Positions 13,964-49,389 of a stretch of DNA of 49,389 nt are shown here, piece after piece. The DNA lies in the IMG/VR virus record IMGVR_UViG_2851966386_000003, positions 1-49,389 of that record; one strand, 5' to 3'. A program made the position numbers and the translations under genes. The notes beneath the pieces are model-generated. The model searched no databases. It was not told the origin of the DNA and saw only the letters and a list, made by a program, of their open reading frames with translations. Source of the DNA: a virus (Duplodnaviria; Heunggongvirae; Uroviricota; Caudoviricetes). The number at the start of each line of letters is the position of its first letter. The stretch's first letter is position 1.

Positions 13964-13982
13964 TCTGTGTGAGGTGCTAACC

Positions 13983-17657: not shown

Positions 17658-17816
17658 CTGCCACATAACATATTTAAGATTTATGGAAGGTTTACTTCTG
17701 CGGTTGCCCTTCTATGTTTATAGAACGTAACGGCAAAAGTGAATGCTTCCTGGTAAATCGGTAGCTCGGACTATTAGGAGTGGCTTCGTTTCGTTACTAC
17801 CTAGAATGCCTACTTT

Positions 17817-20351: not shown

Positions 20352-20544
20352 ACATACTGCATAACCCCATAAAGGCCTTCCATTACGGTAGGCCTTTTCT
20401 CTTCTGGTTGTATCTAATACTGTGGGCAGGTCAGCTGGCTTATGCAGGACAGATTATTTTTTCTTATTGAATGCCGCTTCTGGTGTGCTTATATTCTACC
20501 TAAAAATGGGTAGGTGTGTTGTGATTAGAAAATGCTATGCAAGA

Positions 20545-20904: not shown

Positions 20905-21500
20905 AACTACTTACGATACATTCCTCATATGTTCGAAGGATATAACATCTCTCAGGTATCCTGCTTCTGGATGCCGGGAATGTGTACCGCTGGTGGGCTG
21001 GATTCTTGGAGCCTTTGCCCAGCAGTTTCAGGTGATAAAAAACCCCGTGGAGTAAATCCGACAAATTGACGGGGCGCTGCAGAGGCAGCCAATGTCGGAG
21101 TTTAGTCAGATTTCGAGGTGTTTTTCTACTGGTTTGAGAAAAAATGGATGGTCTGACACTACAGGAATTGGCTCATCCCTGAGCTCACGGGTAGAACAGT
21201 AGACTTTGTCATGGCAGAGCAAAGTCATAAGTAAGTGTAGAATGTGTTTCTGATTTAACAAGCGTAGCGAGTGTATGCTTCATGGATTGTACGTCTGTAA
21301 CTTTCATAATATTTCTGCCATTTCAAAATTAAGATACTAGGTAAAACCTTAGGGAATTTAGAGGGTAAGAGAAGCTGTGAACAAAAAAATCTCCTCGCGA
21401 AGCAATGTTTTTCACTTTAACGAAATATATTGTTTGCAATGTGGGTTTTTTAGTTCATCATGTATGCTACATTGAGTTCTTATAAAATGAGCTGCTAATT

Positions 21501-21707
21501 ATGACTGAGTGCAAACTTCCACAACTTCCAGAGTATTATCGATATGGTACTGAACAAATTAACAAGTTGCCTGGGAGTGGGGATGTTTTTCCTCCTGCGG
21601 GTAGTATAATAAAGTCAGTAAGTTTAAATGAAGGTGTATTTGTTTGTGTTCCGGTGCAGCGTTATATACACGGGTTGAATATTTGGGTTGTAGTTGAATC
21701 TTCTTGA
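21501..21707 (+). CDS. Hypothetical small protein (weak)
   Basis: 68-aa ORF in AT-rich region; weak SD. Confidence 0.25.
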   Translation: MTECKLPQLPEYYRYGTEQINKLPGSGDVFPPAGSIIKSVSLNEGVFVCVPVQRYIHGLNIWVVVESS

Positions 21708-21829
21708 TAATGATTTTTGTTTGGTAAAAGTGATTTTTCGTTGGTTTGGTGGTTTCTATTTATTATAAATTCGCTGTTGGAATTTAAAATTAGCATCATT
21801 GCAATGCTTTCAAACACCGTAGAAGGATT

Positions 21830-22024
21830 ATGATGCTAGTGCAAAATAATATTTATAATAATTCAGAGTCATATGCTATTCTTTTGTTTAGTATGTGGCC
21901 TGTCCTTATTGTACTTCTTGTCGTGATATCTTGCGCCTTTTACGGTGTATTGATGCATAAAACTGCAATTTGTTGTTTTCTGTCAGCTATGTTCCTTGGT
22001 GTCGCAGGCTGGTTTTATGGATGA
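21830..22024 (+). CDS. Small membrane protein
   Basis: 64-aa ORF with two hydrophobic helices; AAGGA SD. Confidence 0.3.
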   Translation: MMLVQNNIYNNSESYAILLFSMWPVLIVLLVVISCAFYGVLMHKTAICCFLSAMFLGVAGWFYG

Positions 22025-22178
22025 TCACCATTAGCTCTAATATGAGTCACTTTTTAGTATAAAGTCAGGGTGTCATTACTTTACCTGGCTTGTAGCGTTG
22101 GTTCCCTAAAGTTTGACGATAAAAGGCCCTGTTAATACAGGGCCTTTCTGTATGTATTATTTATCAAAGAGGTAAGAC

Positions 22179-22424
22179 ATGTCAGAGATCACCGCATCTG
22201 AGCAAATCCGCCTGGATATTATCAAGAAAGTGAATTACGACACTGCAGCGGCGAAGTTAGCCATTGACTGGGTAGGCGACAGCTATCTGAAGTCTGAGCT
22301 ATTCGCTGACTCTTTCGATCGTGTTTTCACGGAAAGTGAGATTGTCTCGAAGACCCGTAAGGCAATCCAGGAAGCGACCGAAGCGCTGGCGCTGTTTGAT
22401 ACTGCCGCTGAGCAGGTCAGCTAA
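22179..22424 (+). CDS. Hypothetical protein
   Basis: 81-aa ORF with AAGAGG SD ~6 nt upstream. Confidence 0.45.
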   Translation: MSEITASEQIRLDIIKKVNYDTAAAKLAIDWVGDSYLKSELFADSFDRVFTESEIVSKTRKAIQEATEALALFDTAAEQVS

Positions 22425-22749
22425 GGCATTACAGCAGGCGTTCATAGAGTGCCTGTGATAATGACCATCAGACAAATCGTCTGAGCTGACAGTTCAATCA
22501 ATCACCAATTACCAGTTACACGGGGTAACTGACATCATTGTCTGTTTATCCCGGTGAATTTTGAAATACTTACTACTCTCATAACGTCTCTGCCTGCCAA
22601 CACCAGAACGGCAGAGGTCAGTTAGCCGTATAGATGAACCTCTCCCGGGTGGCTCCTGAGAGATTCTTTATACGCTAGCTGGTAGTAACTAAAGGCCGCA
22701 TATTTTTGCGGCCTTTTTCATCATTTGTAAAATGAAAGCCCTCAGGCGA

Positions 22750-22878
22750 TTAACGATGCTCAGGACCATGGAAGTGATCTCCACCATGTCCGCCTCCATG
22801 GGGACCAGGGGGAAGGATACATCCTGAAAGTGACAGCGCACCACAGATCACAAAAACAGCAAGCATAATTCTTTTCAT
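22750..22878 (-). CDS. Small lipoprotein with His/Gly-rich mature region (42 aa), below ORF-track cutoff
   Basis: Manual translation MKRIMLAVFVICGALSLSGCILPPGPHGGGHGGDHFHGPEHR; lipobox LSGC; weak SD. Confidence 0.4.
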   Translation of the reverse strand: MKRIMLAVFVICGALSLSGCILPPGPHGGGHGGDHFHGPEHR

Positions 22879-22982
22879 AATAACTACTGAACTAAAGAGC
22901 CTTAATTCCAAAACATAAAAGTGAATATTTTATGGAGAATCAGTAATTCCTTTTTCTCCCTCACGTTAAAGAGGAATAATCC

Positions 22983-23978
22983 ATGGCAAAACCGGACTGG
23001 GGCGAGCTTCAGCAACGGTTCCTGTCCAATCATGCCGCAACCGGCGTATCACCGAAGGATTGGTGTGAAGCGCAGGGACTGAATTACGCTACTGCCCGCC
23101 GATACATCAAGAAACCCACTGCGCAAAAACCTGCGCAGAAGAAATTGCGCACTGCGCAAAAGGAAAAGTGCGCAGAAGAGCTGGTGGATGATGATGGCCT
23201 CACCGATCAACAACGTTTATTTGTCGCGGAATACCTGAAGGACAACAACGCCACGCAGGCCGCCATTCGAGCCGGGTATAGCAAGAAGACTGCTGAACAA
23301 ATTGGCTATCAGCTGCTTCAGAAAACTTCAGTTGCGCAGGCTATTGCGCAGCAGCAGAAAGCATCCATTGTGCGCACGCTCGGCAGCGCTGATGAAGTGC
23401 TTGAGCAGATGTGGCGCCTGGCCACCTTCGATGCCAACCAGCTATCACAGTATCGCCGCGGGAGTTGTCGTTACTGCTGGGGCTTTGGTCATCAGTATCA
23501 ATGGCGTGACGCTGTTGAGTATGAAGAGAAGCGGCTCGAAGCGCTTGAGCGAAAACGTCGCGAGCCCGTCGATGTTGGCGGCTACGGTTACGACCACACC
23601 AGCGCACCTAACCCGGAATGCCCCCGCTGCAATGGCGATGGCATAGGACAGCCTTTCTTCGCCGATACGCGCAAGCTGGCGCCTGATGCTGCGCTTGCCT
23701 ATTCCGGCGTGAAGCTCGGAAAGAACGGTGTGGAGATAACCGCCATCAGCCGTGAGCGCATGTACGAGGCGGTGATGAAACGTCTCGGCCTGGCTGATAG
23801 TGAGTTCGCCCAGCGACTGCAGCAGATAGAAATTGAGCGCCGGCAGCTGGAGATCGACAAACTTCGCAAAGAACTGGCCACTGACCCGGAGGATGACGAA
23901 CCAACGCCAGTTGCAATCAATATCAACGTAGTCGATGCGCGAGTGAGGGAAGAGGATGGCGATAGCTCCGACGCTTAA
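22983..23978 (+). CDS. Terminase small subunit with Cys-rich C-terminal extension
   Basis: Terminase-small signature (LTDQQRLFVAEYLKDNNATQAAIRAGYS) followed by CxxC motifs; upstream of terminase large subunit. Confidence 0.75.
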   Translation: MAKPDWGELQQRFLSNHAATGVSPKDWCEAQGLNYATARRYIKKPTAQKPAQKKLRTAQKEKCAEELVDDDGLTDQQRLFVAEYLKDNNATQAAIRAGYSKKTAEQIGYQLLQKTSVAQAIAQQQKASIVRTLGSADEVLEQMWRLATFDANQLSQYRRGSCRYCWGFGHQYQWRDAVEYEEKRLEALERKRREPVDVGGYGYDHTSAPNPECPRCNGDGIGQPFFADTRKLAPDAALAYSGVKLGKNGVEITAISRERMYEAVMKRLGLADSEFAQRLQQIEIERRQLEIDKLRKELATDPEDDEPTPVAININVVDARVREEDGDSSDA

Positions 23979-34235: not shown

Positions 34236-37115
34236 ATGACAGAACAAACCTCCCGCCTGGCCATTGTGATTGATAGCTCCGGGGCAGAAAAGCAGGCTGA
34301 CAATCTCGCAACTGCACTGGTAAAAATGACGCAGGCAGGCGAACGTGCTGTTACCAGTGCAGGGAAAGTGACAAAAGCTACTGATGAAGAAAAACAGTCT
34401 CTTTCTGAACTCTTAGATCGAATTGACCCGGTAAACGCAGCTCTGAATAAACTGGATAAACAACAGCAAGATCTTGCGAAATTCAAATCAAAGGGGATGG
34501 TAGATATCGATACATTCGATCTTTATTCAAAGAAAATCGAGGAAACACGAAACAGGCTAACTGGATTTCGCGACGACCTTGGCAAAACCGGACAATCTGC
34601 CGCACAGACTGCCTTTGCCATGCGCATGATCCCAGCGCAGATGACTGACATTATTGTCGGCTTATCTACGGGGCAGTCGCCGTTTATGGTGCTTATGCAG
34701 CAGGGCGGGCAGTTGAAAGATATGTTCGGCGGTATTGGCCCCGCGATTAAAGGTGTTGGCGGGTATGTGCTGGGGTTGATTAATCCTGTCACTCTGGCTG
34801 CCGCGGCTGTCGGTGTTCTTGGGCTGGCCTATTACAAAGGCTCTCAGGAGCAAGGCGAGTTCTATAAGTCATTGACCCTTAACGGTAATCTGGTTGGTAA
34901 AACCACCGGGCAACTAGCAGATATGGCCGCTCGGGTTTCAGTAGTTGCCAACTCAACTACTGGCGTGACCGCAGCCACACTTAACCAGATAGTTTCATCC
35001 GGGAAAGTGGCTGCAGAGTCATTGGAACGAGTAACAACTGCCGTGGTTGAAATCAGTGAAGCCACAGGCATCGCCACTGAAAAGCTGGTGGGTGATTTCA
35101 ACGACATTGCTGCTGACCCGGTTGCGGCCATTACAAAACTTAACGACCAGTACCACTTTCTGACACTGGCAACCTACAACCAGATTAAAGCACTGCAGGA
35201 TGAAGGTAATCAGCAGGATGCTGCACGGGTGGCTACTGATGCTTACGCCAATGCCATGCAGCAGCGTGCGAACGATATTCATCAGAATTTGGGGATTCTT
35301 GAACGTGCTTGGGACTCGCTTGCTAAAACGGCTAAAGGAGCATGGGATGCCATGCTTGATATAGGTCGCGAGCAAACCGGCACCGAGCGGATCTCTCAAA
35401 TTCGTAAGGAATTAGATTGGATAGATAAGGCTGCAGGCGGGAAGCTATTTTTTGGTGGAAGAAAGGCTGAGCTCGAAGATGAGCTAAATAATCTGCAATC
35501 TCAAATCACAACAGAAGGCGTTTTAACTGAAATAATCAGTAGTCATGACAAAGCTGAACAGCAAAGAATTAAAACGCAGCAGGAAGCAGATCGCGTTAAC
35601 CAGCAATATCTGAGCAATGCGGATAAGCGCAATAAAGCCATTAAGCAGCAAAGCGAGTTCCTGAAGGCAGGCGCAATTACTGCAGAGCAATATTCAAAAA
35701 ATGTTTCTCGTATTAACGAGATGTACAAAGATCCGAAACCACCCAAGACGCCAAAGAGTAAAGCATATACCGAGGACGCAGCAACCCGGCTGCTTGATCA
35801 GATAAACCAGCAGACTGCTGCTATGCAGTCCCAGCTGGATGCCAGTGACAAGCTTAACAGCTCGACACAGGCGCGGATTAAGTTCGAACAGCAAATTGCT
35901 GACCTCAAGTCTAAAACGCAGCTCACCGCTGACCAGAAGTCGATCCTTTCCCGTTCAGATGAAATCCTCCAGGCATATAAGCAGCAGGAGGCACTGCAAA
36001 ATTCCGTAAAAACCCTGGACGATTACCGCAAGATGCAGGAACAGGTAAAGACGAAAGATAAGCGGACCAACGATCTGCTTAAAACCCGTCTTGAACTGCT
36101 GGAGAAGGCCAAAGCAACCGGGCAACTTAAACCCGGTGAATATGCAAAAACGCGGGCAGATATTTATCAAAACACCGATATGCAACTGCCCTCGACGGTT
36201 CGTAATGTTGTAGGAAACCTGACACCCACAGGAGGGCGACTCTCTGGAACTTTTGAGGGGATGCAGGGGCAAATCAACGAATATGATCAGGCTCAGCAAG
36301 AGCTCCAGCGCTGGCTGGCAGCTCAGGAGGAAGCTTATGCGAAGGCCGGTGAAATAACTGCCGAGGGTGAGGCCAGAATGACCTCTATTCGTCAACGTGC
36401 GGCGGATGCAAATCAGGTCATAGAGGCTCAGAAAAACACCATCATATCTGCGGCCACGCAGTCCTTGTTTGATAGCACCGCCGAAATCATGCGAACGGGG
36501 TTTGGTGAGCAATCGGCAATCTACAAGGTCGCTTTTGCTGCGAGCAAGGCATTCGCTATCGCGGACTCGATGGTGAAAATCCAGCAGGCTATAGCAAGCG
36601 GTGCAGTAAGCGCGCCTTATCCGGCCAACATCATCGCTATGGCCTCAATCGCTGCGCAGACTGCCAGTATCGTCTCAAATATCCAGGCTGTTTCAGGAGT
36701 TGGCTTCGCCTCCGGCGGTTACACCGGCCCCGGTGGTAAGTATCAGCCCGCGGGTATTGTTCACAAAGGTGAGTACGTCTTCGACCAGGCTTCAACGAAC
36801 CGGATCGGCGTGTCTCAGCTTGAGGCACTTCGAAATGGCCAACCGCTTGATGCAACTCTGGGGCGTACAGGGTTTGGTACTGGTGTTCAGAACGTTAACA
36901 GCGATAACCGTAGGCAAACAACTGTACACGCGCCGATTAATCAGGAGTTTCATCTCCAGGGTATTACTCCGGAGCAGTTGAGCGCTACACTCAATCAGAA
37001 TAATCGACTGCTTTCCAGGCAGTTAAAAGGTGAACTCACAAAGGAGGTTACCATGCCACAAGGGGCTTTTGGTAACGCTCTAAAAGGAAACTATACACGA
37101 CACGGTCCTAGGTAA
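34236..37115 (+). CDS. Tail tape measure protein
   Basis: 959-aa coiled-coil-rich product in canonical position after G/GT. Confidence 0.85.
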   Translation: MTEQTSRLAIVIDSSGAEKQADNLATALVKMTQAGERAVTSAGKVTKATDEEKQSLSELLDRIDPVNAALNKLDKQQQDLAKFKSKGMVDIDTFDLYSKKIEETRNRLTGFRDDLGKTGQSAAQTAFAMRMIPAQMTDIIVGLSTGQSPFMVLMQQGGQLKDMFGGIGPAIKGVGGYVLGLINPVTLAAAAVGVLGLAYYKGSQEQGEFYKSLTLNGNLVGKTTGQLADMAARVSVVANSTTGVTAATLNQIVSSGKVAAESLERVTTAVVEISEATGIATEKLVGDFNDIAADPVAAITKLNDQYHFLTLATYNQIKALQDEGNQQDAARVATDAYANAMQQRANDIHQNLGILERAWDSLAKTAKGAWDAMLDIGREQTGTERISQIRKELDWIDKAAGGKLFFGGRKAELEDELNNLQSQITTEGVLTEIISSHDKAEQQRIKTQQEADRVNQQYLSNADKRNKAIKQQSEFLKAGAITAEQYSKNVSRINEMYKDPKPPKTPKSKAYTEDAATRLLDQINQQTAAMQSQLDASDKLNSSTQARIKFEQQIADLKSKTQLTADQKSILSRSDEILQAYKQQEALQNSVKTLDDYRKMQEQVKTKDKRTNDLLKTRLELLEKAKATGQLKPGEYAKTRADIYQNTDMQLPSTVRNVVGNLTPTGGRLSGTFEGMQGQINEYDQAQQELQRWLAAQEEAYAKAGEITAEGEARMTSIRQRAADANQVIEAQKNTIISAATQSLFDSTAEIMRTGFGEQSAIYKVAFAASKAFAIADSMVKIQQAIASGAVSAPYPANIIAMASIAAQTASIVSNIQAVSGVGFASGGYTGPGGKYQPAGIVHKGEYVFDQASTNRIGVSQLEALRNGQPLDATLGRTGFGTGVQNVNSDNRRQTTVHAPINQEFHLQGITPEQLSATLNQNNRLLSRQLKGELTKEVTMPQGAFGNALKGNYTRHGPR

Positions 37116-37198
37116 GCTAAACTGCATTAGCTGAGACTTGATTAGGTAGGTAAGTCTAACAATCTGAGTAGGTGCAAGAAAACACAAGGATCTTATTA

Positions 37199-37534
37199 AT
37201 GGAAGCGTTGTTAACATTTACATTTAAAGACTTTATAGCTTTTATGATTCCTCTTTTTATTGGCGGACTTATCTTCAATAGGAGACGTAAACGTAAGGAG
37301 GTCCGAGTGAAGTTTTCATTTCTTTGGCTTGTTTTGATAGTCGGTGGAATTCTTGAAATATGCGATGATATCTACACAACTTATTCCTATAGGCATAATC
37401 ACTTATATAATAATGATACGCTTACAACCGTGTTTAACTATGATTTTGCAAAAATTGTTTTTTGTGGGGTTTTGATTTTTGTTTCTATTGCGCTTCTTCT
37501 TCAGGAGTTGCTTTTAAATAAGCAGTCACATTGA
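37199..37534 (+). CDS. AT-rich small membrane protein (moron)
   Basis: ATG 37199 eight nt after AAGGA; three hydrophobic helices; followed by ~310-bp AT-rich non-coding tract. Confidence 0.45.
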   Translation: MEALLTFTFKDFIAFMIPLFIGGLIFNRRRKRKEVRVKFSFLWLVLIVGGILEICDDIYTTYSYRHNHLYNNDTLTTVFNYDFAKIVFCGVLIFVSIALLLQELLLNKQSH

Positions 37535-37848
37535 CGAATATTGCCTGTCGGCACATTGCCCTTTTTTATTTTGATATGGGGCTGTGCCGAAACAATGTAA
37601 GCTCAAATTAAAGTCAATAAAATTAGTGTATTGATAATGCTGTGTTTTTGATTTCTTTTAGCTCTTGAGATGAGTTGATAAATATATCGCCTTGTGTGTT
37701 TGTGTCGGTTTAAAAAGATTTTTATCTTCGTTAATCTGAACCAAAAAAATCAGAGTTTTCTTCGATTCCATAGTGCTTTATTCTGAAATGAATACCCTCC
37801 TGAGGTTAATGGTGAAATTTTATTCGAGATACTTTACCGGGAGACTGC

Positions 37849-38322
37849 ATGACTGATATCTACTACCCACATGACAGCCTCCCTATGCCATTACAGGAAG
37901 GATACGGATTTCAGCCTGTAAGCCCGTTAAAACGAACCCAGTTAACCACCGGTCGCGCGAGGCAAAGGCGAGCTTTTACGTCCACGCCGACGCAGGCCAG
38001 CATCACCTGGTTTATGGAAACCGATGCGCAGGGCCTGGCGTTTGAGTCCTGGTTCCGTGATGCGTTATCTGACGGGGCTGCATGGTTCATGATGAAGTTG
38101 CAGACGCCGTCAGGCATTAAGTTTTACAAATGCCGCTTCACAGATATTTATCAGGGACCGGTGCTAGTGCCCCCGATTTACTGGAAGTACACGGCGACGC
38201 TTGAATTATGGGAACGCCCCCTTGCTCCTGCCCCATGGGGTAATTACCCGGAATGGATCGTCGGCAGCTCACTGCTGGATATTGCGCTGAATAAGGAGTG
38301 GCCAAAGCATGACGCAGATTAA
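37849..38322 (+). CDS. Minor tail protein (gpM-like)
   Basis: Position after tape measure; loose motif resemblance to lambda M. Confidence 0.5.
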   Translation: MTDIYYPHDSLPMPLQEGYGFQPVSPLKRTQLTTGRARQRRAFTSTPTQASITWFMETDAQGLAFESWFRDALSDGAAWFMMKLQTPSGIKFYKCRFTDIYQGPVLVPPIYWKYTATLELWERPLAPAPWGNYPEWIVGSSLLDIALNKEWPKHDAD

Positions 38323-38800: not shown

Positions 38801-39181
38801 ATGTTTAACCCTGATAAATACCGTTCAGTCACCTGGCTGAAGGGCGGGCGCGTATACCCGCAACTCGACTGTTTCGGCATTGTGAACGAGATACGCCGCG
38901 ATCTGAATTTACCCGTCTGGCCCGATTTTGCAGGGGTAACCAAAGACGACGGCGGCCTCGACCGGGAAGCACGCCGGATGATGCTTACCCTTGAGCGCTG
39001 CGAACCCTGCGAAGGGGCCGGGGTGGCCTGTTATTCCGGGTCGACTGTCACCCACGTAGGGATCGTGGTCAGTATCGATGGTCTGTTGCATGTGGCGGAA
39101 TGCAACCCAGGCACGAACGTCACCTTTCTGCCGTTGCCGCGATTTAAGCGGCGCTTTGTTCGCGTGGAGTTCTGGCAATGA
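38801..39181 (+). CDS. NlpC/P60-like tail-associated peptidase (gpK-like)
   Basis: Conserved Cys (LDCFGIV) and His (VTHVGIV) spaced as in NlpC/P60 peptidases; position before tip gene. Confidence 0.5.
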   Translation: MFNPDKYRSVTWLKGGRVYPQLDCFGIVNEIRRDLNLPVWPDFAGVTKDDGGLDREARRMMLTLERCEPCEGAGVACYSGSTVTHVGIVVSIDGLLHVAECNPGTNVTFLPLPRFKRRFVRVEFWQ

Positions 39182-42100
39182 CCATTCGTTTTTATCCTTC
39201 CCGGCTTCCCGGAGAACCACTTGAAACGCATGAGCATGGTGTTACGAGCATTCGCAGCTGGCTGGTTACCAATGTCGAAAACTATACCGACCGGGATGTC
39301 CCACCGCTGACCGTTGAGGTTGAGGGTAAGTCAATTCCGCCAGGTGAGTGGGCCACCTGCGTGATTCGCCCTGATAGTGATGTCAGGCTTTATCCGGTTC
39401 CATTCGGGCTGGAGGCCGCCACAATCGCGTGGATCGGTATCGGTATCTCCGTTGCCGCTGCAGCCTATTCGCTTGTTTTGATGAGCACCATTGATACGGG
39501 CGGCTATACCTCATCCACAGGGCGGAGTCTCGACCTGAACCCGGCGCGGGCCAACACCGCAAAACTCGGTGATGCCATTCGTGAGGTGTTTGGCCGGGTG
39601 CGTATCTACCCAGATTATGTGGTGCAGCCGGTTACCCGGTTTGATGCCGCCGATCCTACGAAAATGCGCGTCCAGATGCTGCTATGCCTAGGTGTCGGTG
39701 ATCTGATTTATACCAATGGCGATATCCGGGTAGGCAGCACTCCTGCATCGACGCTGCCGGGTTTCAGCAGCATCCATTACCCGCCAGGAGCGGACGTTTC
39801 CGGTGATGAGCGCAGTGAAAACTGGGTCAACAGTACGGAGGTCGGAGGGACATCATCCGGTACCGGACTGGATATGGCCCAGACGTCGCCGGACGCAGAC
39901 GACATTATCGCAGACAGCATGACCGTCTCCGGATCGAGCGTGACGTTTACCGGGCTGGATACGGATGATGATGACGATAATGACGAGAACGATAACGCGC
40001 TGCCGCCCAGCTGGGTCGCTGGCGCCGTGGTCGAACTGAAAGCCCCGGCGAACTACCAGATCACCACGGCGGCCGGATACAGTGTTATCGCCAGCCCGCT
40101 GCTGACGGAGATCGCGCCGGTAGTAGGTATGCCGGTAACGCTGGGGTTTAACTCAGTCGATTACGATCTGTTTATCGCGTCATATACTCCTGGTCAGGCT
40201 GCAGTGCCCGGCGCCGGGGGGAGTGCGGCAAAACTCCAGGCCAGTGCGGCCCCGACCACCTACGATTTTTCGACCAACTCCAGCTCGTTCACGATCACCT
40301 GGCAGGGGATTACCTACCCGGTGTCGCTGGTGGCTAACTATGTCTCGATGTCGGGACTGCTGGCGGCCATCACCGAGGGACTCACCGGCTCCGGCCTGGT
40401 TGCGCAGGACAACGGCGGCACCGTACTGATAACCGAGGCGGCCAGTCCGTTCGTTGGTGGGGCGATCACGTCCTCTTCACTGCCTGCAGCTGTTTTCGGT
40501 GATGCCCCGGTTTACACCTCCGGCACGGCATCAACCGGCGGCAGCCCGGCGGTAACGGCGAATGTGACACTCGCCTATAACTCTGCCACGGGAACGGCCT
40601 TTTCCGGCATGCCGGAGGGGGTGCAACGGCTTTCACTTGCTCACCGCGGGAATGAGTACCGGATTGTGTCAGCTGACGGTACAACGGCGACGGTGGCGCG
40701 CCTGGTTTCCGGTGCCGTTGATGAGACATGGCCGGGATTCACAGCCAGGACGATGATCGACTATGAGGCTACTGGTCTTAACGACACGCTGAGCTGGCTG
40801 GGGCCGTTCCTGGTTTGCCCTGAAAATGAGACCGTGGATATGTTCGAGGTGAATTTCTCCTTCCCGAACGGCATCTGTGGCTTTGACAGCAAGGGGAAAA
40901 AGCGGCTTCGGCATGTTGAGTGGGAGATTCAGTATCGCGTCTACGGTTCCGGATCGGGGTGGGTGAGTCACCAGGGAGAGTATGCGCTTAAAAACGTCAA
41001 CGGGCTGGGATTCACTGAGCGGATCACCCTCAGCTCTCCGGGACTGGTAGAGGTTCGCTGTCGCCGGCGCAATGAGCAGGGCTCAAACAACGCCAGGGAT
41101 TCGATGTACTGGCAGGCACTGCGCGGGCGACTGCTGACACGACCTTCATCCTATCCCGGCGTGTCGCTGATGGCGGTGACCGTCGAGACGGGCGGGAAGC
41201 TGGCGGCGCAGTCGGACCGTCGCGTTAACGTTGTGGCCACGCGCGCCTATGACTCAGGAGCGGCCAGAACCATTTCGGGGGCGCTGCTGCATGTCGGGAA
41301 CTCGCTGGGGCTGGAGATGGATGTCGACACCATCAACGCGCTGGAGTCTGCGTACTGGACGCCACGGGGAGAGTATTTCGACTTTGCTACCGGCGACAGT
41401 ATCTCAGCGCTGGAAATGCTGCAGAAGATAGCCAATGCCGGCAAGTCCCGCTTCCTGTTAAGTGATGGCCTGGCGACGGTCAACCGTGAGGGGATTAAGC
41501 CCTGGACTGGCGTGATTACTCCGCATGAGATGGTGGAGGAGCTGCAGAGCGGATTTACCGTACCGTCCGACGATGATTTTGATGGTGTCGACGTGACGTA
41601 CATCAACGGCGTCACCTGGGCAGAGGAGACCGTCAAATGCCGGACGCCTGATAATCCCACGCCGGTGAAAAGCGAGAACTACAGACTCGATGGGGTACTG
41701 AATCAGGATCACGCCTACCAGATCGGCATGCGTCGCCTGATGAAATACCTGCAGCAGCGGGTGACGTTCCAGACCACTACCGAGCTGGACGCGCTGTGCT
41801 ACAACACGGGCGATCGCATCGTGCTCACGGATGATATCCCGGGCAACAACACGATTTCCTGTCTGGTGGAGGCGATGACAACGGCTGGTGGCGTGACAAC
41901 GTTCACCGTTACGGAGCCGCTGGACTGGTCTTTCGAAAATCCCCGAGCGCTGATCCGCTATCAGGATGGCTCGGCATCCGGGCTGATGGTGGCGAGCAGG
42001 GTGGGTGATTTTCAGCTGTCAGTCCCGCACCTGAGCGAGTTTGATGACCCGATGAAGGTTGACCTGTCGTCGGCAACCATCGAGCCGATCCGCCTGGTGT

Positions 42101-42246
42101 TCTGCGGCTCAACGCGCCACGTCTACGACGCCATTGTAGAGGAGATCGCTCCGCAGTCAGACGGAACCTGTCAGGTCACCGCTAAAGAATACCTCGAATC
42201 GTTCTACCAGTACGACGACGCCACATACCCCGGCGACGTCGCGTAA
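39178..42246 (+). CDS. Tail tip / host-specificity protein (gpJ-like) with gpI-like N-terminal region
   Basis: 1022-aa product; N-terminal ~150 aa has a TM-like segment (AATIAWIGIGISVAAAAYSLVLM); last gene before fibre segment. Confidence 0.65.
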   Translation: MTIRFYPSRLPGEPLETHEHGVTSIRSWLVTNVENYTDRDVPPLTVEVEGKSIPPGEWATCVIRPDSDVRLYPVPFGLEAATIAWIGIGISVAAAAYSLVLMSTIDTGGYTSSTGRSLDLNPARANTAKLGDAIREVFGRVRIYPDYVVQPVTRFDAADPTKMRVQMLLCLGVGDLIYTNGDIRVGSTPASTLPGFSSIHYPPGADVSGDERSENWVNSTEVGGTSSGTGLDMAQTSPDADDIIADSMTVSGSSVTFTGLDTDDDDDNDENDNALPPSWVAGAVVELKAPANYQITTAAGYSVIASPLLTEIAPVVGMPVTLGFNSVDYDLFIASYTPGQAAVPGAGGSAAKLQASAAPTTYDFSTNSSSFTITWQGITYPVSLVANYVSMSGLLAAITEGLTGSGLVAQDNGGTVLITEAASPFVGGAITSSSLPAAVFGDAPVYTSGTASTGGSPAVTANVTLAYNSATGTAFSGMPEGVQRLSLAHRGNEYRIVSADGTTATVARLVSGAVDETWPGFTARTMIDYEATGLNDTLSWLGPFLVCPENETVDMFEVNFSFPNGICGFDSKGKKRLRHVEWEIQYRVYGSGSGWVSHQGEYALKNVNGLGFTERITLSSPGLVEVRCRRRNEQGSNNARDSMYWQALRGRLLTRPSSYPGVSLMAVTVETGGKLAAQSDRRVNVVATRAYDSGAARTISGALLHVGNSLGLEMDVDTINALESAYWTPRGEYFDFATGDSISALEMLQKIANAGKSRFLLSDGLATVNREGIKPWTGVITPHEMVEELQSGFTVPSDDDFDGVDVTYINGVTWAEETVKCRTPDNPTPVKSENYRLDGVLNQDHAYQIGMRRLMKYLQQRVTFQTTTELDALCYNTGDRIVLTDDIPGNNTISCLVEAMTTAGGVTTFTVTEPLDWSFENPRALIRYQDGSASGLMVASRVGDFQLSVPHLSEFDDPMKVDLSSATIEPIRLVFCGSTRHVYDAIVEEIAPQSDGTCQVTAKEYLESFYQYDDATYPGDVA

Positions 42247-42275
42247 TACCCCATAACAACCCCTAATTAACTCTT

Positions 42276-42301
42276 TTCGCTCAAACCCTCGTTTGGGCGA
42301 A
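42276..42301. promoter_or_regulatory. Candidate invertase recombination site (left), 26-bp imperfect palindrome
   Basis: TTCGCTCAAACC-CT-CGTTTGGGCGAA; inverted copy at 47771-47796; within ~58-bp inverted repeat 42271-42329. Confidence 0.6.
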
Positions 42302-42323
42302 GCCTCTTTTTGGAGCAAAAAAC

Positions 42324-44075
42324 ATGGCCTTTAACCCGGAGCTGGGGAGCACGTCTCCCGCTGTGTTGCTCGATAACGCCGAGCGTCTGGATAAGCTGGT
42401 CAATGGGCCCGAGCTGACTGAGCCGGATCGCGCTGGCGTTGAGCTGGATACCTGGCGCGGAATGATGGCGAAAAATGATCAGGTTACTGAAGACGCCCGC
42501 AAAAGTATTACTGCGCTGGGATTACCCTATTCGACATTATCGGAAGCACAGGCAGCCGTGAACAACGGTCAGATACCGGTGGACTCAGTTTGCTATGTCC
42601 GCAGCACTGACGACGCAGTAGCAATTGAGTATTTAAACGAAGCCGGAACACTGGTACCCACCGGGAATGTGTTGCCCTCAGAAGAAACCATCGACAAAAA
42701 ACTCAATCAGCGACTCGTCCCGGGTCAATACCTGTCGACATGGTTTCCTGTTTTTTTCGATCGAAACAGAAATGTTTACGCGTGGTTTGATGGTGGACGT
42801 TGGGACGTTGCTGATTTTGGCGCTAATGCACGAACAATCATTGAATCAGTACCTAACGCCTGGGCACAAAAATTTCTCCCCCAGGGAGACTACTCTCCAA
42901 ATTACTTTCCGTTTGTTCACGACAGAAATGGAAATGTTTATGCATGGTTCCATAACGGTATGTATGACGGTTATGGATTTGGGCCAAATATTGAAAAATA
43001 TATCTTAAATCTTGTCGGTGGGGCTTCTGCACAATCAGACAGTTCATTTATTGAAGGAGACCAGTATAAGTTCAACTTTAAAAAAGGTCGTGTTTTCAGT
43101 GGGCAGGCAGCGAGTGTTAACACTGCATTTTTTGGTGACTCATGGAACGAAAAAAACACGATCCCACAATCATTAATTAATGTTCTGGGAGGAATGTTTA
43201 AAGACCCGGCCTGGATAAGTTGCTCTAACCGCGCTGATGGTGTCATGGCTGGCATATCGCCTGTCGTTGCAACAAACTTTACGAAATATGATGGAGGGAG
43301 TAATAACACGAACCCGCCACCGTATGGATGCGGACCTGATGGGAATGGGTATTACAATAACAATACTGTTGGGTCTCTGGCCTGGACCGGTATTACAGCA
43401 ACCGACCTTTCAGTTTTCTATTATGATGGTTCCGGTTCGTTTACCATCACAATTGATGGCGGCACACCTGTAACAGTCAATGGTGCGAACACCGGAGCAG
43501 CTAAAAAGCACGATATCAGTGGGCTATCCGCAACAGCCCATAGCGTAACGATTCAGAGCCTGGGAAGTGGGGTTGTATCCATTTTGGGGATGTATGGAAA
43601 GAACAGCGCTGTGCGTTCCGGCGTAACGGTTTCAAGGATGGGGAATGGCGGGGCTATAGGAAGTGATTTCTTTAATTTTTCTGAGTGGATCAAACCTGTT
43701 GCACAGTATCTCGATATTGATTTGTTGTTCGTCATCCTTGGTACAAACGATTTCAGGTTAAGCAAGGGGACGACGCAATATAGAAATGGACTGGTGGAAA
43801 TAATTACAAAGTTTCGGGAAGCTACGCCCGGCATCTGTATTTGCCTGGTGTCACCGGGTCACTGTAATGCAACTGGTACTCCAGCTCTGTCAGAGTACGA
43901 TGCTGTCATGCGTGAACTGGCTGTTGAGTATAACGTCAACTTCATTAGTGGATATCAGCTATTCCCGAAAACGTACGATAACAGCAATGGGGCCTGGGAG
44001 GATGGTTTGCACCTGAGCTCTCTTGGCGCATATATATTGACAAATAAAATCAAAAAAGAATTTTTTCAGGAGTAA
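42324..44075 (+). CDS. Tail fibre/spike protein 1 with C-terminal SGNH/GDSL hydrolase domain
   Basis: N-terminal ~110 aa paralogous to fibre 2; SGNH blocks FFGDSW, ILGTNDF, DGLHLS. Confidence 0.7.
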   Translation: MAFNPELGSTSPAVLLDNAERLDKLVNGPELTEPDRAGVELDTWRGMMAKNDQVTEDARKSITALGLPYSTLSEAQAAVNNGQIPVDSVCYVRSTDDAVAIEYLNEAGTLVPTGNVLPSEETIDKKLNQRLVPGQYLSTWFPVFFDRNRNVYAWFDGGRWDVADFGANARTIIESVPNAWAQKFLPQGDYSPNYFPFVHDRNGNVYAWFHNGMYDGYGFGPNIEKYILNLVGGASAQSDSSFIEGDQYKFNFKKGRVFSGQAASVNTAFFGDSWNEKNTIPQSLINVLGGMFKDPAWISCSNRADGVMAGISPVVATNFTKYDGGSNNTNPPPYGCGPDGNGYYNNNTVGSLAWTGITATDLSVFYYDGSGSFTITIDGGTPVTVNGANTGAAKKHDISGLSATAHSVTIQSLGSGVVSILGMYGKNSAVRSGVTVSRMGNGGAIGSDFFNFSEWIKPVAQYLDIDLLFVILGTNDFRLSKGTTQYRNGLVEIITKFREATPGICICLVSPGHCNATGTPALSEYDAVMRELAVEYNVNFISGYQLFPKTYDNSNGAWEDGLHLSSLGAYILTNKIKKEFFQE

Positions 44076-44077
44076 TT

Positions 44078-44836
44078 ATGCCTATTACAGCCATTTTACT
44101 TGATATGAACGGTCCCGTCATACCGGGGATGAAAACCCTTGATGACTTTACTATTTCAAACTGGTTCATCGGGCTCCCGGATGTCAGTGCAACACCGTTC
44201 GCTGGTTATTATTTTGGAGAGCCAGCGCCTGATATCACTTATAACTCCTATAACAAAAACGCTCCGGCCGTCATCAATGGTTCTCTGAATAATGCTGACG
44301 GTTATATCTCTGTTAACAATACTGACTTTCTGGATACAAGTCAGAAAGCACCTCTGACGCTGACAATCTGTGGTGTGGCTAAACGGAATGCCGGCGGGGC
44401 CTCGCTGAATGCCCATATGATCGCAGATTTTTCAGGAAGCGGTTCAGCAGCGAGTGGCTTCTCAATTGGCTTCACGAACGGGACCGGGAATCTCTTTTGT
44501 GTAGGCCAGAATAACGGTCAGTCCTCCGCAGGGTATGCCTATGCAGCATTCCCGGCATCAATTGCCGTAGGTGATCTGTTCGCGTTTGCTGCCTCGATAA
44601 CCCAGGGGACAGTAACCATTGATATTTACAACCCGCAGACCGGGGCACTGATATCATCATCAGCCGCTTTCCCTGGTACCCGAGTGGCCGGGACAAATAA
44701 CGTCCTGCTGGGGAGGAAAACTGATAATAACAACGAAACAACGACCAAGTATATCAAGTCGGTTTTGTTGATGGAGGGCGTGCTTACTTCAGCAGAGAAG
44801 GTTTCTGTTTCGCAGTTCTTATTGTCGATGGAATAA
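44078..44836 (+). CDS. Fibre-associated protein co-transcribed with fibre 1
   Basis: 252-aa ORF 2 nt after fibre 1 stop; AGGAG SD. Confidence 0.45.
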   Translation: MPITAILLDMNGPVIPGMKTLDDFTISNWFIGLPDVSATPFAGYYFGEPAPDITYNSYNKNAPAVINGSLNNADGYISVNNTDFLDTSQKAPLTLTICGVAKRNAGGASLNAHMIADFSGSGSAASGFSIGFTNGTGNLFCVGQNNGQSSAGYAYAAFPASIAVGDLFAFAASITQGTVTIDIYNPQTGALISSSAAFPGTRVAGTNNVLLGRKTDNNNETTTKYIKSVLLMEGVLTSAEKVSVSQFLLSME

Positions 44837-44875
44837 AAAATCCCCTGAGATAAAACACTCAGGGGATTTATTTCA
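44837..44875. terminator. Bidirectional terminator between convergent fibre operons
   Basis: tcccctgag ataaaaca ctcagggga flanked by A-run upstream and T-run downstream. Confidence 0.65.
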
Positions 44876-44880
44876 TGACA

Positions 44881-45201
44881 TCATTGAAGTATACATTTTT
44901 CTCGTACAGAGCTCTTTATGGTGATTTGTTGAGAAAATTCTGGCATTTCCATAATCTGTATTTCAGCCTGCTCTGCCCATGATTTTGATGATGAGGTATC
45001 CAGCGAAATAGGGTAATCACCTACGATGACCTTTGCATTGTCATCATAACGCACTGACAATGTTGCTTTTACCTGACCAGTGTCATCCTGACGGACGCTT
45101 TCAACTGCATAAATTAAATCTATTTCAACATCCTTGTCGCAGAGATATCCACCGAGATAATGAATCTGGACTGTTTTTAATACTGACAATTTAAATGACA
45201 T
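44881..45201 (-). CDS. Fibre-associated protein co-transcribed with fibre 2
   Basis: 106-aa ORF starting 10 nt after fibre 2 stop; AAGGAA SD. Confidence 0.45.
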   Translation of the reverse strand: MSFKLSVLKTVQIHYLGGYLCDKDVEIDLIYAVESVRQDDTGQVKATLSVRYDDNAKVIVGDYPISLDTSSSKSWAEQAEIQIMEMPEFSQQITIKSSVREKCILQ

Positions 45202-45210
45202 AATGATTCC

Positions 45211-47748
45211 TTACGCAGGTAAGTAGTATTTTTCGCCGTAAATAAGCTTGCACAGACTGAATGCCGCTGCATCTGCGCCAGCCTTGTAACTGACGGTATA
45301 GCCGAGGTCATTCGGGTGGTTGAAATTAGGTGAGTTGAAAAGGGCTGACCATCCGTGTACCTCCACTCCCTGTTTGAACCAGGGGATTTCAGCTTCCAGT
45401 ACAAATGCGGATTTCTTCCGTGCTGTGGCTCGCGCCATGCTGTTATAGAGGCCAAACCGCACATCACCAACAACTTCAATACCACTCCCTGACCAGTCGG
45501 ACTCCACAAATGACCGTGACGGCGGCGGATCGAGTACTTCCTCAATAATGCTGTCCAGATTAATTTGCTGAATAGTGGTATTGATCAGGTCAGAGACCGG
45601 AATATTTTCTGCCACAGTAATAGTGTTACGATCAGCAGAAATGCCGGTAATTGTGTAGTCGCCTGCATTGCTGCCACCGACCCGAAGGATATGGCCTGGA
45701 CGGAGAATCTGGCCGCCCCAGCTGGTCGCTGCATTTCCTGTATCATATGAGAAAGCAGTACTAGAGATAGTATTACTGGCTGAATCAAACGTGAAGTTGC
45801 CCGTAACATTGAAAGTCCTCACAGGCCAGACAACGTTAAGGTTTCCCAGGGTAATGTTTTTGACGGTATTATGTTCAACATTGTTATGCGGCGTGGTACA
45901 AACAATCACGATCGCACCTTTTGCCGTGCACATATCAATAATGTTCTCAAGCTCTGCCTGCTGACGAGGGAAGGTCCTTCCACGATTAAAGTTCCCCACC
46001 GGAGCATCATTCATCCCCCCTACAATCAGAACGAAATCAGGCCAGTCGTCAGGGTTTTCACTGGTGAAATACGGTGAGTTTTGTAGCTGTGCTGGAAACT
46101 GCTGTAATGCCTGGCCAATTACGCACTGATTGTCGTCGATAAACTCAAATTCCCCATACGGTGATAAATATTTTTTCATCGCCTCAATAAATAGCGTATT
46201 CGGCGCAAAAGGCGCCCCCGGAACCCCGCCACCTGTTGAGCCTGCAGCTAATCCTACCGACGAACCCGTTGAAGTAAAAATAAGCCGTTTTTTTGTGACT
46301 GTTCTTACGCCATTACTAAACGAAATTTTACCAAATGGCGAAGTGTCGGCCGCTGTACCATCACCAATGAGTTTTTTGCGCAATTTAATATAGGGGTCAG
46401 TGACAGCACCCTGCAGAGTGGTGACATCGCTTTTGAGGTTCAGAATGTCTGTGGTCGGATCGCCTGAGAGCAAAAGTTTGAAATTGTTAACGGGAGAACC
46501 ACGATACTGAACCGTAACAGGTTTCGCTGCCTGCAGTTCGCCGCCCGTAAGCGCTGTGTTCGCCCCCTTCAGCAGATTGCGCGTTACCGAATTTCCGTAC
46601 AGGTCAGTTATAACAAGCGTCGTTGCGCCGGTATTAGCCACCACGGGTTCAAATGTTATCTGAGTACCGTCACCAAGCAGCCCGGGTATGGTTACGGACA
46701 CAGCGTTAGGGCTTGAGGAGTCACTTGTTACCGTCCCTTTGGTATACGCATTGAGAACCCGTGCCCTGTCACCTGGGTAGGTCAGCAAACGAAAATCACT
46801 GGCGGCCGCATTATACATGAGCAGATACGGGTATCCTGAGACAAGGTCTCCGACAGCCAGAGCAGTACCGCCAGCCTGTTTAATCGTACGTGCCGTCCAA
46901 CCGTTCAGCGACAGCGTCGGTGTTCTCGTGGTATTGGTTGCGCTGGGTGTAAAAACAAACGCGCGACCAGTGACCAGAACCTGTGATGATGTGGTGTTGG
47001 CAGTGTTTCCTGTATACGCGTCCGATGTCATTGTTACTGCCGAAACAATCGCAACGGAGTTCAACTCAACATTCAGCAGGCGTGCATTCAGCTCTGCCGC
47101 CACTGGGCCGGATGCGACAAGGACGAAATTGTTGGCGGTTCCTGTGCGGAACTCCATCAGTACCGGTTGATTCAGCAAAAGCTCATTACCAGCGAGCGCT
47201 GCGAAATTTTGTTTCTGGATTGCGCGAGTAACGGTATTCCCCTTCGCGTCTGTCACGGTCACACTGACCGCGCCGGTATTCAGGATGGGGGAAAGGAAAT
47301 AAATAAGACTGCTATCAACCAGCAGACCGGGAATAGTGATAGCGATAGTATTTGCCGCATTGCTGCTGACTGCCGTTGCAGCCTGATAGCCAGTTGGTAA
47401 CGCAGACAGCATTTTTCTCCCAGTGGCAACCAGCATACCGCCAACATTCATATACTCAATAGCCAGATATGCGTCATCAGGGCTACGCACATAGGTGCTG
47501 CTGCCTTCTGGAATATTCGCGATATCCGCCTGCGCCGCCGCCAGCGTCTGATACTGCTTACTGAGCGGGATCAGGTTCTGCCTGACCTCATCGTTTTTCG
47601 CCATCATCTGGCGCCAGGTATCGAGCGGTTCACCGCCGCGGTCGTTAACCGTACCTGCCGGACCGTTAACCAGCTCGTCAGCGCGCTTGACGTTATCCAG
47701 GAAAATTTCAGGCGTCGTCGTTCCCAAAGGCGGGTTAAGTTCGGCCAT
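45211..47748 (-). CDS. Tail fibre/spike protein 2 (alternative fibre)
   Basis: N-terminal ~110 aa paralogous to fibre 1 (MAELNPPLGTTTPEIFLDNVKRADELVNGP... vs MAFNPELGSTSPAVLLDNAERLDKLVNGP...); unrelated C-terminus; 5' UTR is inverted copy of fibre 1 5' UTR. Confidence 0.65.
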   Translation of the reverse strand: MAELNPPLGTTTPEIFLDNVKRADELVNGPAGTVNDRGGEPLDTWRQMMAKNDEVRQNLIPLSKQYQTLAAAQADIANIPEGSSTYVRSPDDAYLAIEYMNVGGMLVATGRKMLSALPTGYQAATAVSSNAANTIAITIPGLLVDSSLIYFLSPILNTGAVSVTVTDAKGNTVTRAIQKQNFAALAGNELLLNQPVLMEFRTGTANNFVLVASGPVAAELNARLLNVELNSVAIVSAVTMTSDAYTGNTANTTSSQVLVTGRAFVFTPSATNTTRTPTLSLNGWTARTIKQAGGTALAVGDLVSGYPYLLMYNAAASDFRLLTYPGDRARVLNAYTKGTVTSDSSSPNAVSVTIPGLLGDGTQITFEPVVANTGATTLVITDLYGNSVTRNLLKGANTALTGGELQAAKPVTVQYRGSPVNNFKLLLSGDPTTDILNLKSDVTTLQGAVTDPYIKLRKKLIGDGTAADTSPFGKISFSNGVRTVTKKRLIFTSTGSSVGLAAGSTGGGVPGAPFAPNTLFIEAMKKYLSPYGEFEFIDDNQCVIGQALQQFPAQLQNSPYFTSENPDDWPDFVLIVGGMNDAPVGNFNRGRTFPRQQAELENIIDMCTAKGAIVIVCTTPHNNVEHNTVKNITLGNLNVVWPVRTFNVTGNFTFDSASNTISSTAFSYDTGNAATSWGGQILRPGHILRVGGSNAGDYTITGISADRNTITVAENIPVSDLINTTIQQINLDSIIEEVLDPPPSRSFVESDWSGSGIEVVGDVRFGLYNSMARATARKKSAFVLEAEIPWFKQGVEVHGWSALFNSPNFNHPNDLGYTVSYKAGADAAAFSLCKLIYGEKYYLPA

Positions 47749-47770
47749 GTTTTTTGCTCCAAAAAGAGGC

Positions 47771-47796
47771 TTCGCGCAAACGAGGGTTTGAGCGAA
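47771..47796. promoter_or_regulatory. Candidate invertase recombination site (right), inverted copy
   Basis: ttcgcgcaaacg-ag-ggtttgagcgaa, reverse complement of left site with one substitution. Confidence 0.6.
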
Positions 47797-47839
47797 AGAG
47801 CGGAGCTTTTTACAATCAGTTATTTCAAGGAGTTAGATA

Positions 47840-48409
47840 GTGCTGATTGGCTATGCGAGGGTATCAACCGGGGATCAAAACCTCGACTTACAGAAAAATG
47901 CGCTGATCCGCGCAGAATGTGAGCTGGTTTTTGAGGATATGGCCAGCGGGAAAAATGCCCAGCGGCCAGGGTTAAAGCGCGCCTTACGCAGGCTTAAGCC
48001 CGGCGATGTGCTGGTGGTCTGGAAACTTGACCGACTGGGCCGAAGCGTGCGTGACCTGATTACACTCGTGTCGGAGCTGCAGGCGCGCGGGGTGAATTTC
48101 CGCAGCCTGACTGACAGCATCGACACCTCGACGCCTGCGGGACGTTTCTTCTTCCACGTCATGAGCGCCCTGGCGGAAATGGAAAGAGAGCTGATTGTCG
48201 AGCGTACACGAGCGGGTTTAGCCGCAGCGAGGGAGCAGGGGAGAGTCGGCGGCCGCCGCCGGGTAATGACTGAAGTAGTGGTGGAGCGGTGCCGCAGAAT
48301 GCTGGAGAACGGCGCTACCCGGCACCAGATCGCAGATGTGATAGGGGTGGGAGTGAAGACGATTTACAAATATTTGCCAGTACAATACAGCGATAAAAAA
48401 TCCCCTTGA
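47840..48409 (+). CDS. Serine DNA invertase (Gin/Hin/Pin/Cin family)
   Basis: Product aligns with Gin from memory (MLIGYARVSTGDQN...LVVWKLDRLGRS...FRSLTDSIDTSTPAGRFFFHVMSALAEMERELIVERT); C-terminal HTH. Confidence 0.85.
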   Translation: MLIGYARVSTGDQNLDLQKNALIRAECELVFEDMASGKNAQRPGLKRALRRLKPGDVLVVWKLDRLGRSVRDLITLVSELQARGVNFRSLTDSIDTSTPAGRFFFHVMSALAEMERELIVERTRAGLAAAREQGRVGGRRRVMTEVVVERCRRMLENGATRHQIADVIGVGVKTIYKYLPVQYSDKKSP

Positions 48410-48950: not shown

Positions 48951-48969
48951 TTTTGTGAGCGAGTTTATT

Positions 48970-49389
48970 ATGCAGTTCTACACGCCCGTTGAGTTACGCC
49001 AGATCATGCTGCTCCCGTTGTACAGTGACCTTGTGCAGTGCGGCTTTCCTAGTCCAGCGCAGGATTATGTTGAGCAACGTATTGATCTGAACGAGTTGCT
49101 CGTTAACCACCCAAGTGCGACGTATTTTGTCAAAGCCGCCGGCGACAGCATGAAAGACGCAGGCATAGGGGAAGGTGATCTTCTGGTCGTGGATAGCTCA
49201 AGAACAGCAGTTCATGGCGATATCGTTATTGCTGCTGTGGATGGGGAATTCACCGTTAAGAAGCTGCAGCTGCATCCGCGGGTTCAGCTTAACCCAATGA
49301 ACCCTGCATATTCGCCAATAGTCGTCGGTAGTGAGGACACTCTCGACGTGTTCGGGGTGGTTACGTACATCATTAAATCAGCTGGCTAA
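48970..49389 (+). CDS. umuD: UmuD (error-prone polymerase V subunit, LexA-like S24 peptidase)
   Basis: Product matches E. coli UmuD ([27 protein letters not shown]...[13 protein letters not shown]...[19 protein letters not shown]); start is internal ATG of ORF 48955..49389. Confidence 0.85.

Follow-up and report, generated by a model that had tools for sequence, protein, structure and literature searches.

The virus record IMGVR_UViG_2851966386_000003 (Caudoviricetes), analysed over all 49,389 nucleotides (the window), encodes two tail fibres in an invertible arrangement downstream of a tail-tip gene. The fibre gene that faces the tail-tip gene, fibre 1 (42324-44075, + strand), probably encodes the receptor-binding fibre of a Klebsiella prophage, whose carbohydrate-esterase head of the Ape1 type likely O-deacetylates capsule or O-antigen and whose gene lies within a segment flipped by an invertase. 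The opposing gene, fibre 2 (45211-47748, - strand), encodes a second esterase fibre, judging from its conserved residues and relatives.

The SGNH head of fibre 1

The fibre 1 open reading frame (ORF) fills 42324-44075 exactly, from its ATG to the stop codon, and specifies 583 amino acids. The first-pass annotation had given it a C-terminal SGNH/GDSL hydrolase domain on the basis of three motifs, and these are indeed present in the order found in SGNH proteins: FFGDSW at residues 269-274 (nt 43128-43145), ILGTNDF at residues 471-477 (nt 43734-43754), and DGLHLS at residues 560-565 (nt 44001-44018). Block II, absent from that list, is MGNGG (residues 439-443), located between FFGDSW and ILGTNDF. 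Pfam PF13472 (Lipase_GDSL_2) matches fibre 1 with E=1.4e-12 and 48.9 bits (cut-off 32.9), over residues 458-569 only. A homologue search retrieved 520 relatives, the closest cluster of which (98% identity, 593 members) bears the NCBI names ‘GDSL family lipase’ and ‘SGNH/GDSL hydrolase family protein’. Conservation was scored in an alignment of 39 relatives with 35-68% identity. All 39 keep D272, S273, G440, N441, G473, N475, D476, and H563 (fibre 1 numbering), while G271 and D560 are each retained by 37. By the Pfam match and this alignment the motif set lies far beyond chance, and the invariance of the catalytic Ser, Gly, Asn, and His, together with the near-invariance of the Asp, down to 35% identity points to selection on catalysis. 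A single-sequence phmmer search of fibre 1 against PDB sequences returned only spurious antibody light-chain matches, and a profile search was needed.

The AlphaFold2 model of fibre 1, a monomer built on the alignment of 39 relatives, reaches a predicted local distance difference test score (pLDDT) above 90 across most of residues 240-583; the shaft is modelled poorly. A three-layer alpha/beta/alpha SGNH fold is predicted, in which a strand (264-271) is followed by a helix (273-276) that begins at S273 and forms the nucleophile elbow. The domain comes in two parts. Its first part, residues 240-295 (43041-43208, +), holds the block I GDS motif with the nucleophile S273 and is delimited by sequence, model, and alignment with Ape1 (4k3u). 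Its second part, residues 431-583 plus the stop codon (43614-44075, +), holds G440, N475, and D560/H563, and is defined by PF13472, residue invariance, and pLDDT values of 86-97. Between S273 of block I and G440 of block II, the model places an all-beta insertion of ∼135 residues (∼296-430; 43209-43613, +), a beta-sandwich resembling carbohydrate-binding modules (CBMs) of families CBM6 and CBM35. The Pfam match covers only the second half of the SGNH domain because this insertion splits it. Thus, the C-terminal SGNH assignment stands on Pfam, conservation, and a confident model, while the division of the domain by a CBM-like insertion had been missed. Neither finding that would speak against the assignment, a predicted structure devoid of the SGNH fold or a missing catalytic Ser or His, was encountered, as the fold is predicted and both S273 and H563 are in place.

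In a Foldseek search of the PDB with the fibre 1 model, the Ape1 enzymes rank first (8GLD and 8GKD from C. jejuni, 4K3U from N. meningitidis), with E∼1e-18 and template modelling (TM) scores of 0.71-0.78, and the superposition takes in both domains over 318-325 residues. Below Ape1 follow CE2 esterases, sialate O-acetylesterases, and isolated CBM6 modules; CE2/CE3 carbohydrate esterases and sialate O-acetylesterase are among the top matches of the head. The fibre 1 family profile likewise matches Ape1 4k3u (E=6.5e-7), with the GDS, GxNG, GTN(D/E), and DxxH motifs aligned. Ape1 is described as a bimodular enzyme composed of an SGNH domain and a CBM35 (bioRxiv 10.1101/2021.09.23.461501), and the fibre 1 head as modelled shares this two-domain design. 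The two proteins are only 13-18% identical, however, and their settings differ: in the periplasm, Ape1 has a housekeeping role on peptidoglycan, whereas the fibre 1 unit forms a phage fibre's head, for which capsule or O-antigen is the most likely substrate. A viral structure library shows the SGNH-plus-CBM head on further tail proteins, from Klebsiella phage Sin4 as well as from phages of Gordonia, Rhodococcus, and Arthrobacter.

Anchor, shaft, and partner gene

The N-terminal module of fibre 1 (residues 1-120; 42324-42683, +) recurs on many Klebsiella phage fibres, and over ∼118 residues it shares 53% identity with the N-terminus of fibre 2, which fits the tail-attachment role previously proposed for this region. 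Comparison of the fibre 1 and fibre 2 families with hhalign gave a probability of 99.9% over 115 columns only, corresponding to this anchor. As the anchor alone is aligned, the two SGNH bodies have no detectable sequence relation. The shaft that follows (residues ∼121-239; 42684-43040, +) consists of two ∼55-residue repeats (YxxxxFPxxxDRNxNVYAWF...) with conserved residues P142/D146/V151/P152 and P196/D200/V205. Its low pLDDT as a monomer would be expected if the shaft is trimeric.

Fibre 1 is followed by a gene for a 252-residue protein (44078-44836, +) that belongs to PHROG 34046 and gives a weak ConA-like lectin signal (Pfam Laminin_G_3, 14.8 bits). Homologues of this partner (40% and 26% identity) directly follow fibre 1 homologues in P2-like myovirus prophages and in lambdoid prophages, and the pairing is seen in prophages with and without an invertase. 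This consistent position assigns the gene to the fibre module, where its product may serve as an assembly factor or a distal lectin. The fibre 1 homologues themselves sit in the fibre slot of lambdoid and P2-like prophages, and these gene orders indicate that esterase head and partner move between tail morphotypes. In four loci from P2-like myovirus prophages (L014-L017, 7001-10584), fibre 1 homologues of 52% identity and a ∼250-residue partner occupy the gpH fibre slot, with a Phage_tail_fib protein after them.

The invertible switch

Directly upstream of fibre 1 lies the gene for a J-like tail tip/host-specificity protein of 1022 residues (39178-42246, +; Pfam FNIII-A_GpJ and Phage-tail_3; PHROG 469 ‘tail protein’, E=7e-295), and fibre 1 starts 77 nt past its stop codon. 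The interval contains the beginning of a 55-nt inverted repeat (42275-42329) whose partner, 98% complementary, lies at 47743-47797. Within the left repeat is a gix/hix-like crossover site of 26 bp (42276-42301) with a palindrome-like 12-2-12 arrangement, TTCGCTCAAACC CT CGTTTGGGCGAA, and the right repeat carries an inverted copy of it at 47771-47796. The crossover sites of Gin and Hin share a 26-bp, 12-2-12 consensus, TTC....AAACC NN GGTTT....GAA, and by their sequence both sites conform to this pattern. On its 3' side, each repeat continues with a GGAG ribosome-binding site and a start codon, which at the left is the ATG of fibre 1, 22 nt beyond the end of the gix-like site. Just outside the right repeat is a gene for a Gin/Hin-family serine DNA invertase of 189 residues (47840-48409, +; Pfam Resolvase, E=1.6e-49, and HTH_7; PHROG 125 ‘DNA invertase’) that matches the Gin structures 4M6F and 3UJ3 over its full length (E∼1e-71).

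The 5.5-kb segment between the repeats holds both fibre genes complete, both equipped with a separate ribosome-binding site and start codon. Crossover takes place upstream of these signals, and entire ORFs are exchanged; no constant 5' gene part lies outside the segment. The two cassettes converge on a hairpin with T-runs on both strands (44835-44872), an inverted repeat that scores terminator-like and is likely a bidirectional terminator. The transcript of the J-like gene presumably reads into whichever fibre gene faces it.

Both orientations of the segment occur in nature. An exact-sequence look-up of fibre 2 found eight public loci (L001-L008), three of which (L002, L005, and L006) are inverted relative to the window and two (L004 and L007) oriented as in it. 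L002 and L005 are collinear with the window in their flanks (99.88-99.99% identity) and inverted at 42271-47800, and the breakpoints in public genomes fall within the 55-nt repeats. The ends of the L008 contig (5,480 bp) coincide exactly with the repeats, a pattern typical of mixed orientation in the reads. An inversion of comparable size, ∼5 kb with five ORFs, arose beside an invertase in a prophage of K. pneumoniae ST14 during experimental evolution (bioRxiv 10.64898/2025.12.17.694638). Such dual cassettes are a minority, as only two of 62 anchor-bearing phage records hold two copies of the anchor domain. A profile scan of genome contigs with the fibre 1 alignment found only five distant loci, which afford no survey of invertible cassettes.

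Phage KPP5665-2 (L022, MF695815.1, 1910-8973) has the same layout of J, invertible pair, and invertase; its alternatives are a 1220-residue ‘O-glycosyl hydrolase’ and a 650-residue fibre with a 252-residue partner. The names ‘kinase’ and ‘flagellar biosynthesis protein’ attached to homologues, including several KPP5665-2 products, are misannotations.

Fibre 2 as a second esterase

Fibre 2 (845 residues), in silent orientation in the window, consists of the anchor, a shaft of repeated beta-domains, and a C-terminal SGNH esterase domain (residues ∼470-845; nt 45214-46341, -) with S497, G545, N580, and H811 and a ∼100-residue insertion between blocks III and V. Its score against PF13472 is 28.1 bits as a whole protein and 30.7 bits as a C-terminal fragment, with a cut-off of 32.9, and the first-pass annotation had seen in it only weak hints of a GxND-like motif. 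This underrated the protein. An exhaustive search with residues 470-845 in a library of representatives at 50% identity found 151 cluster representatives, many of them matching on either side of a gap at query positions ∼160-265. Across 34 aligned representatives (23-52% identity), G495, S497, N580, and H811 are invariant (34/34), G545 is present in 28, and 22 of the relatives reach PF13472 (best E 7.6e-16). The initial family profile found no SGNH structure in the PDB, whereas the profile rebuilt from these representatives matches the GDSL structures 5jd3, 2o14, 4jgg, and 1ivn. The AlphaFold2 model of fibre 2, built on a shallow alignment of close relatives (76-94% identity), has a mean pLDDT of 39.9.

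Over residues 120-845, fibre 2 is 94.9% identical to the protein P0219 (93.0% in the SGNH part), while the N-terminal anchors differ. P0219 agrees without mismatch with the printed first 399 residues of 174_38-KL55, a Klebsiella prophage fibre of 839 residues that predicts capsule locus KL55 in a genome-wide association analysis (GWAS) and that HHpred relates to 7C82_A with a probability of 99.64% (Otwinowska et al., PLoS Biol 2026, PMC13123978). P0219 is presumably the same protein as 174_38-KL55 over its full length. The residue three positions before the catalytic His of fibre 2 is N808 rather than the Asp of a DxxH motif, and P0219 has the same Asn. If 174_38-KL55 shares it, activity is independent of that Asp, and its role may fall to the acidic residue at position 785, which is almost invariant.

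That the switchable fibres might address different receptor chemistries, as had been suggested, is not borne out. Since fibre 2 is also an SGNH enzyme, the switch alternates two esterases, both predicted to remove O-acetyl groups by means of unrelated catalytic bodies, and it is presumably the polysaccharide target that differs.

The fibre 2 shaft (residues ∼120-460; ∼46369-47391, -) is made up of ∼90-residue beta-domain repeats (ITIPGLL...NTGA...). Immediately ahead of the SGNH domain, the family profile has a match to the solved ‘gp47 tail fiber’ 9B45 (E=5e-10). Downstream of fibre 2 is an ORF of 106 residues (44881-45201, -; 91 residues in some relatives), called at the same position in L001-L008, for which Pfam and PHROG gave no family match.

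Comparison with known systems

Fibre 1 is of a known kind. SGNH is the commonest enzymatic domain in the receptor-binding proteins of Klebsiella prophages, and two such fibres, 174_38-KL55 and 164_08-KL2, are active on p-nitrophenyl acetate (pNPA) without depolymerase activity; polysaccharide deacetylation has been proposed for these proteins (Otwinowska et al., 2026). They resemble fibre 1 in host genus, in being receptor-binding fibres encoded after a tail-tip gene, and in their modular N-terminal anchors. 164_08-KL2 carries the fibre 2 anchor on an esterase body of the SASA type. As one anchor stands on unlike bodies (fibre 2 and 164_08-KL2) and one body on unlike anchors (fibre 2 and P0219), anchors and enzymatic bodies are shuffled modules. 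The catalytic unit of fibre 1 resembles Ape1, includes a CBM insertion, and belongs to another SGNH subtype, one outside the proteins assayed in that study, which makes no mention of inversion or invertases.

The tail fibre gp63.1 of E. coli phage G7C (PDB 4QNL) is cited as an O-antigen deacetylase (Otwinowska et al., 2026). Only the core SGNH fold is common to gp63.1 and fibre 1, and the arrangement of domains differs. The fibre gene of G7C, a virulent podovirus, lies outside any invertible switch, unlike that of fibre 1.

The switch is built like the Gin, Cin, Hin, and Pin segments (Mu, P1, p15B, and e14), with a Gin-like invertase beside a segment bounded by inverted 26-bp sites and convergent alternative fibre genes. 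In Mu and P1 the crossover lies inside the fibre gene and joins a constant N-terminal part to alternative C-termini. Here, by contrast, ribosome-binding site and ATG are part of the repeat, and inversion swaps two complete genes whose N-termini share just 53% identity. The invertible pairing of two complete esterase fibres is a minor variant of the Gin/Cin systems, of which no description was found in the literature searched.

Proposed function and alternatives

In the mechanism proposed for fibre 1, the first ∼120 residues would dock at the tail tip beside the J-like protein and continue into the short repeat shaft. The C-terminal 340 residues would provide the active site, with Ser273 as nucleophile, Gly440 and Asn475 in the oxyanion hole, and Asp560-His563, while the inserted beta-sandwich probably holds the polysaccharide chain over it. 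Most likely, fibre 1 O-deacetylates capsule or O-antigen, allowing the virion to bind the polysaccharide and traverse it with no depolymerisation. The earlier proposal of an SGNH hydrolase that deacetylates surface polysaccharide is therefore probably right, given the Pfam match, the conserved residues, and the confident model. In the orientation of the window, fibre 1 and the 252-residue partner face the J-like gene and should be expressed; flipping of the 5.5-kb segment by the Gin-like invertase would put fibre 2, a complete esterase fibre, in place of fibre 1.

Several observations weigh against this account. The two SGNH fibres that have been assayed are of other subtypes (the fibre 2 type and the SASA type), GDSW occurs in none of the partially printed sequences in the supplement of that study, and activity on pNPA does not identify a natural substrate. 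The closest solved fold, Ape1, acts on peptidoglycan rather than capsule, and the model of fibre 1 is that of a monomer only. Finally, the left gix palindrome with its T-run (42275-42302) scores like an intrinsic terminator between the J stop codon and the fibre start, and such a hairpin could attenuate read-through into the fibre gene.

One alternative follows from the structural matches. With two Ape1 enzymes as its best PDB matches by both structure and sequence, the SGNH domain could be a peptidoglycan O-acetylesterase that acts on the cell wall during DNA injection. This is highly improbable at 13-18% identity to Ape1 and for a domain located distally on a side fibre, where capsule and O-antigen are met first. 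Klebsiella and E. coli are not known for peptidoglycan O-acetylation. Related SGNH fibres of Klebsiella prophages, moreover, are statistically associated with capsule loci (Otwinowska et al., 2026). The name ‘GDSL family lipase’ would instead suggest a lipase or phospholipase directed at outer-membrane lipids or the acyl chains of lipid A, which is very unlikely: the CBM6/35-like sandwich and the top matches to Ape1, CE2/CE3, and sialate O-acetylesterase indicate carbohydrate substrates, and the characterised phage SGNH fibres, represented by G7C gp63.1, are polysaccharide deacetylases as cited by Otwinowska et al. (2026). It is also unlikely that the domain is kept as a catalytically silent, lectin-like binding head. 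The activity of prophage receptor-binding enzymes (depolymerases) is not reliably predictable from sequence or structure (Otwinowska et al., 2026), yet a silent head would hardly account for catalytic residues retained by 39 (Ser, Gly, Asn, His) or 37 (Asp) of 39 relatives as distant as 35% identity.

The inversion, for its part, could be a frozen relic, with the two orientations representing ancient lineages and fibre 2 a dead copy. The rarity of two anchor copies (2/62 phage records) would agree with this. However, prophages that are 99.96-99.99% identical in DNA differ by the inversion alone, the invertase ORF is intact and full length relative to Gin, and both fibre ORFs are intact. With the L008 contig ending at the repeats as expected of mixed orientation, and a ∼5-kb inversion beside an invertase observed in a K. 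pneumoniae prophage under laboratory evolution (bioRxiv 10.64898/2025.12.17.694638), a relic is improbable. An esterase fibre in a working switch is the reading preferred here.

Other features of the window

The window is a nearly complete prophage of a temperate Klebsiella siphovirus. It begins with an integrase gene (1-1188), includes RecT and exonuclease VIII-like genes as well as a tape-measure gene (34236-37115), and its nucleotide matches are, with few exceptions, to Klebsiella phages and to Klebsiella records of a plasmid collection. A small, strongly hydrophobic ORF of 111-120 residues (37172-37534, +) separates the tape-measure gene from the tail gene that follows; it lies in a low-GC island (37001-38000; GC 0.38) and keeps this position in L001-L006. 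It resembles a moron and may encode a membrane superinfection-exclusion protein; a match to Acyl_transf_3 (20.6 bits, cut-off 31) is probably compositional, given a short, hydrophobic ORF.

Two copies of the small RNA family STnc100 (Rfam RF02076) are present at 17518-17721 and 20217-20405 (+), scoring 71.9 and 81.5 bits (gathering score 47). A low-GC stretch of ∼2 kb (20904-22983; GC 0.37-0.45) precedes the packaging genes and is nearly devoid of ORFs of at least 70 residues, the sole exception being an 81-residue DUF2560 protein, and no tRNA was found in this interval. Just beyond the invertase, a gene for a UmuD-like S24 peptidase (48955-49389, +) runs past the end of the window. In L001-L003 (14651-16337), the UmuD-like peptidase is followed by a UmuC-like Y-family polymerase, and this pair at the prophage end is error-prone repair cargo. 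A DinI-like gene lies at 13824-14216.

Implications for temperate Klebsiella phages

Capsule-modifying esterases, not depolymerases, appear to be the main route of temperate Klebsiella phages to their hosts. The locus described here adds that one common subtype is the Ape1-like SGNH-plus-CBM unit, and that some prophages carry two esterase fibres switched by an invertase. Tentatively, and with a little less than even confidence, it can be proposed that siphoviral prophages of Klebsiella use a Gin-type invertase to swap receptor-binding cassettes as wholes, not as gene halves, with a start codon, an anchor domain, and a partner gene in each; here both would be deacetylases of unrelated subtypes, so that lysogens release phages of two specificities. 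If so, the lysogen population would hedge its bets between two types of O-acetylated capsule or O-antigen. Statistical associations between SGNH fibres and capsule loci would also be blurred by the silent fibre copy, which could help to explain why K-locus association was most variable for SGNH clusters in the 2026 GWAS (Otwinowska et al., 2026). Knowledge of the fibre subtype aids the prediction of host range and the design of phage and enzyme tools. The switch, which presumably leaves a single fibre copy expressed at any moment, needs to be considered when host range is predicted or capsule associations are studied.

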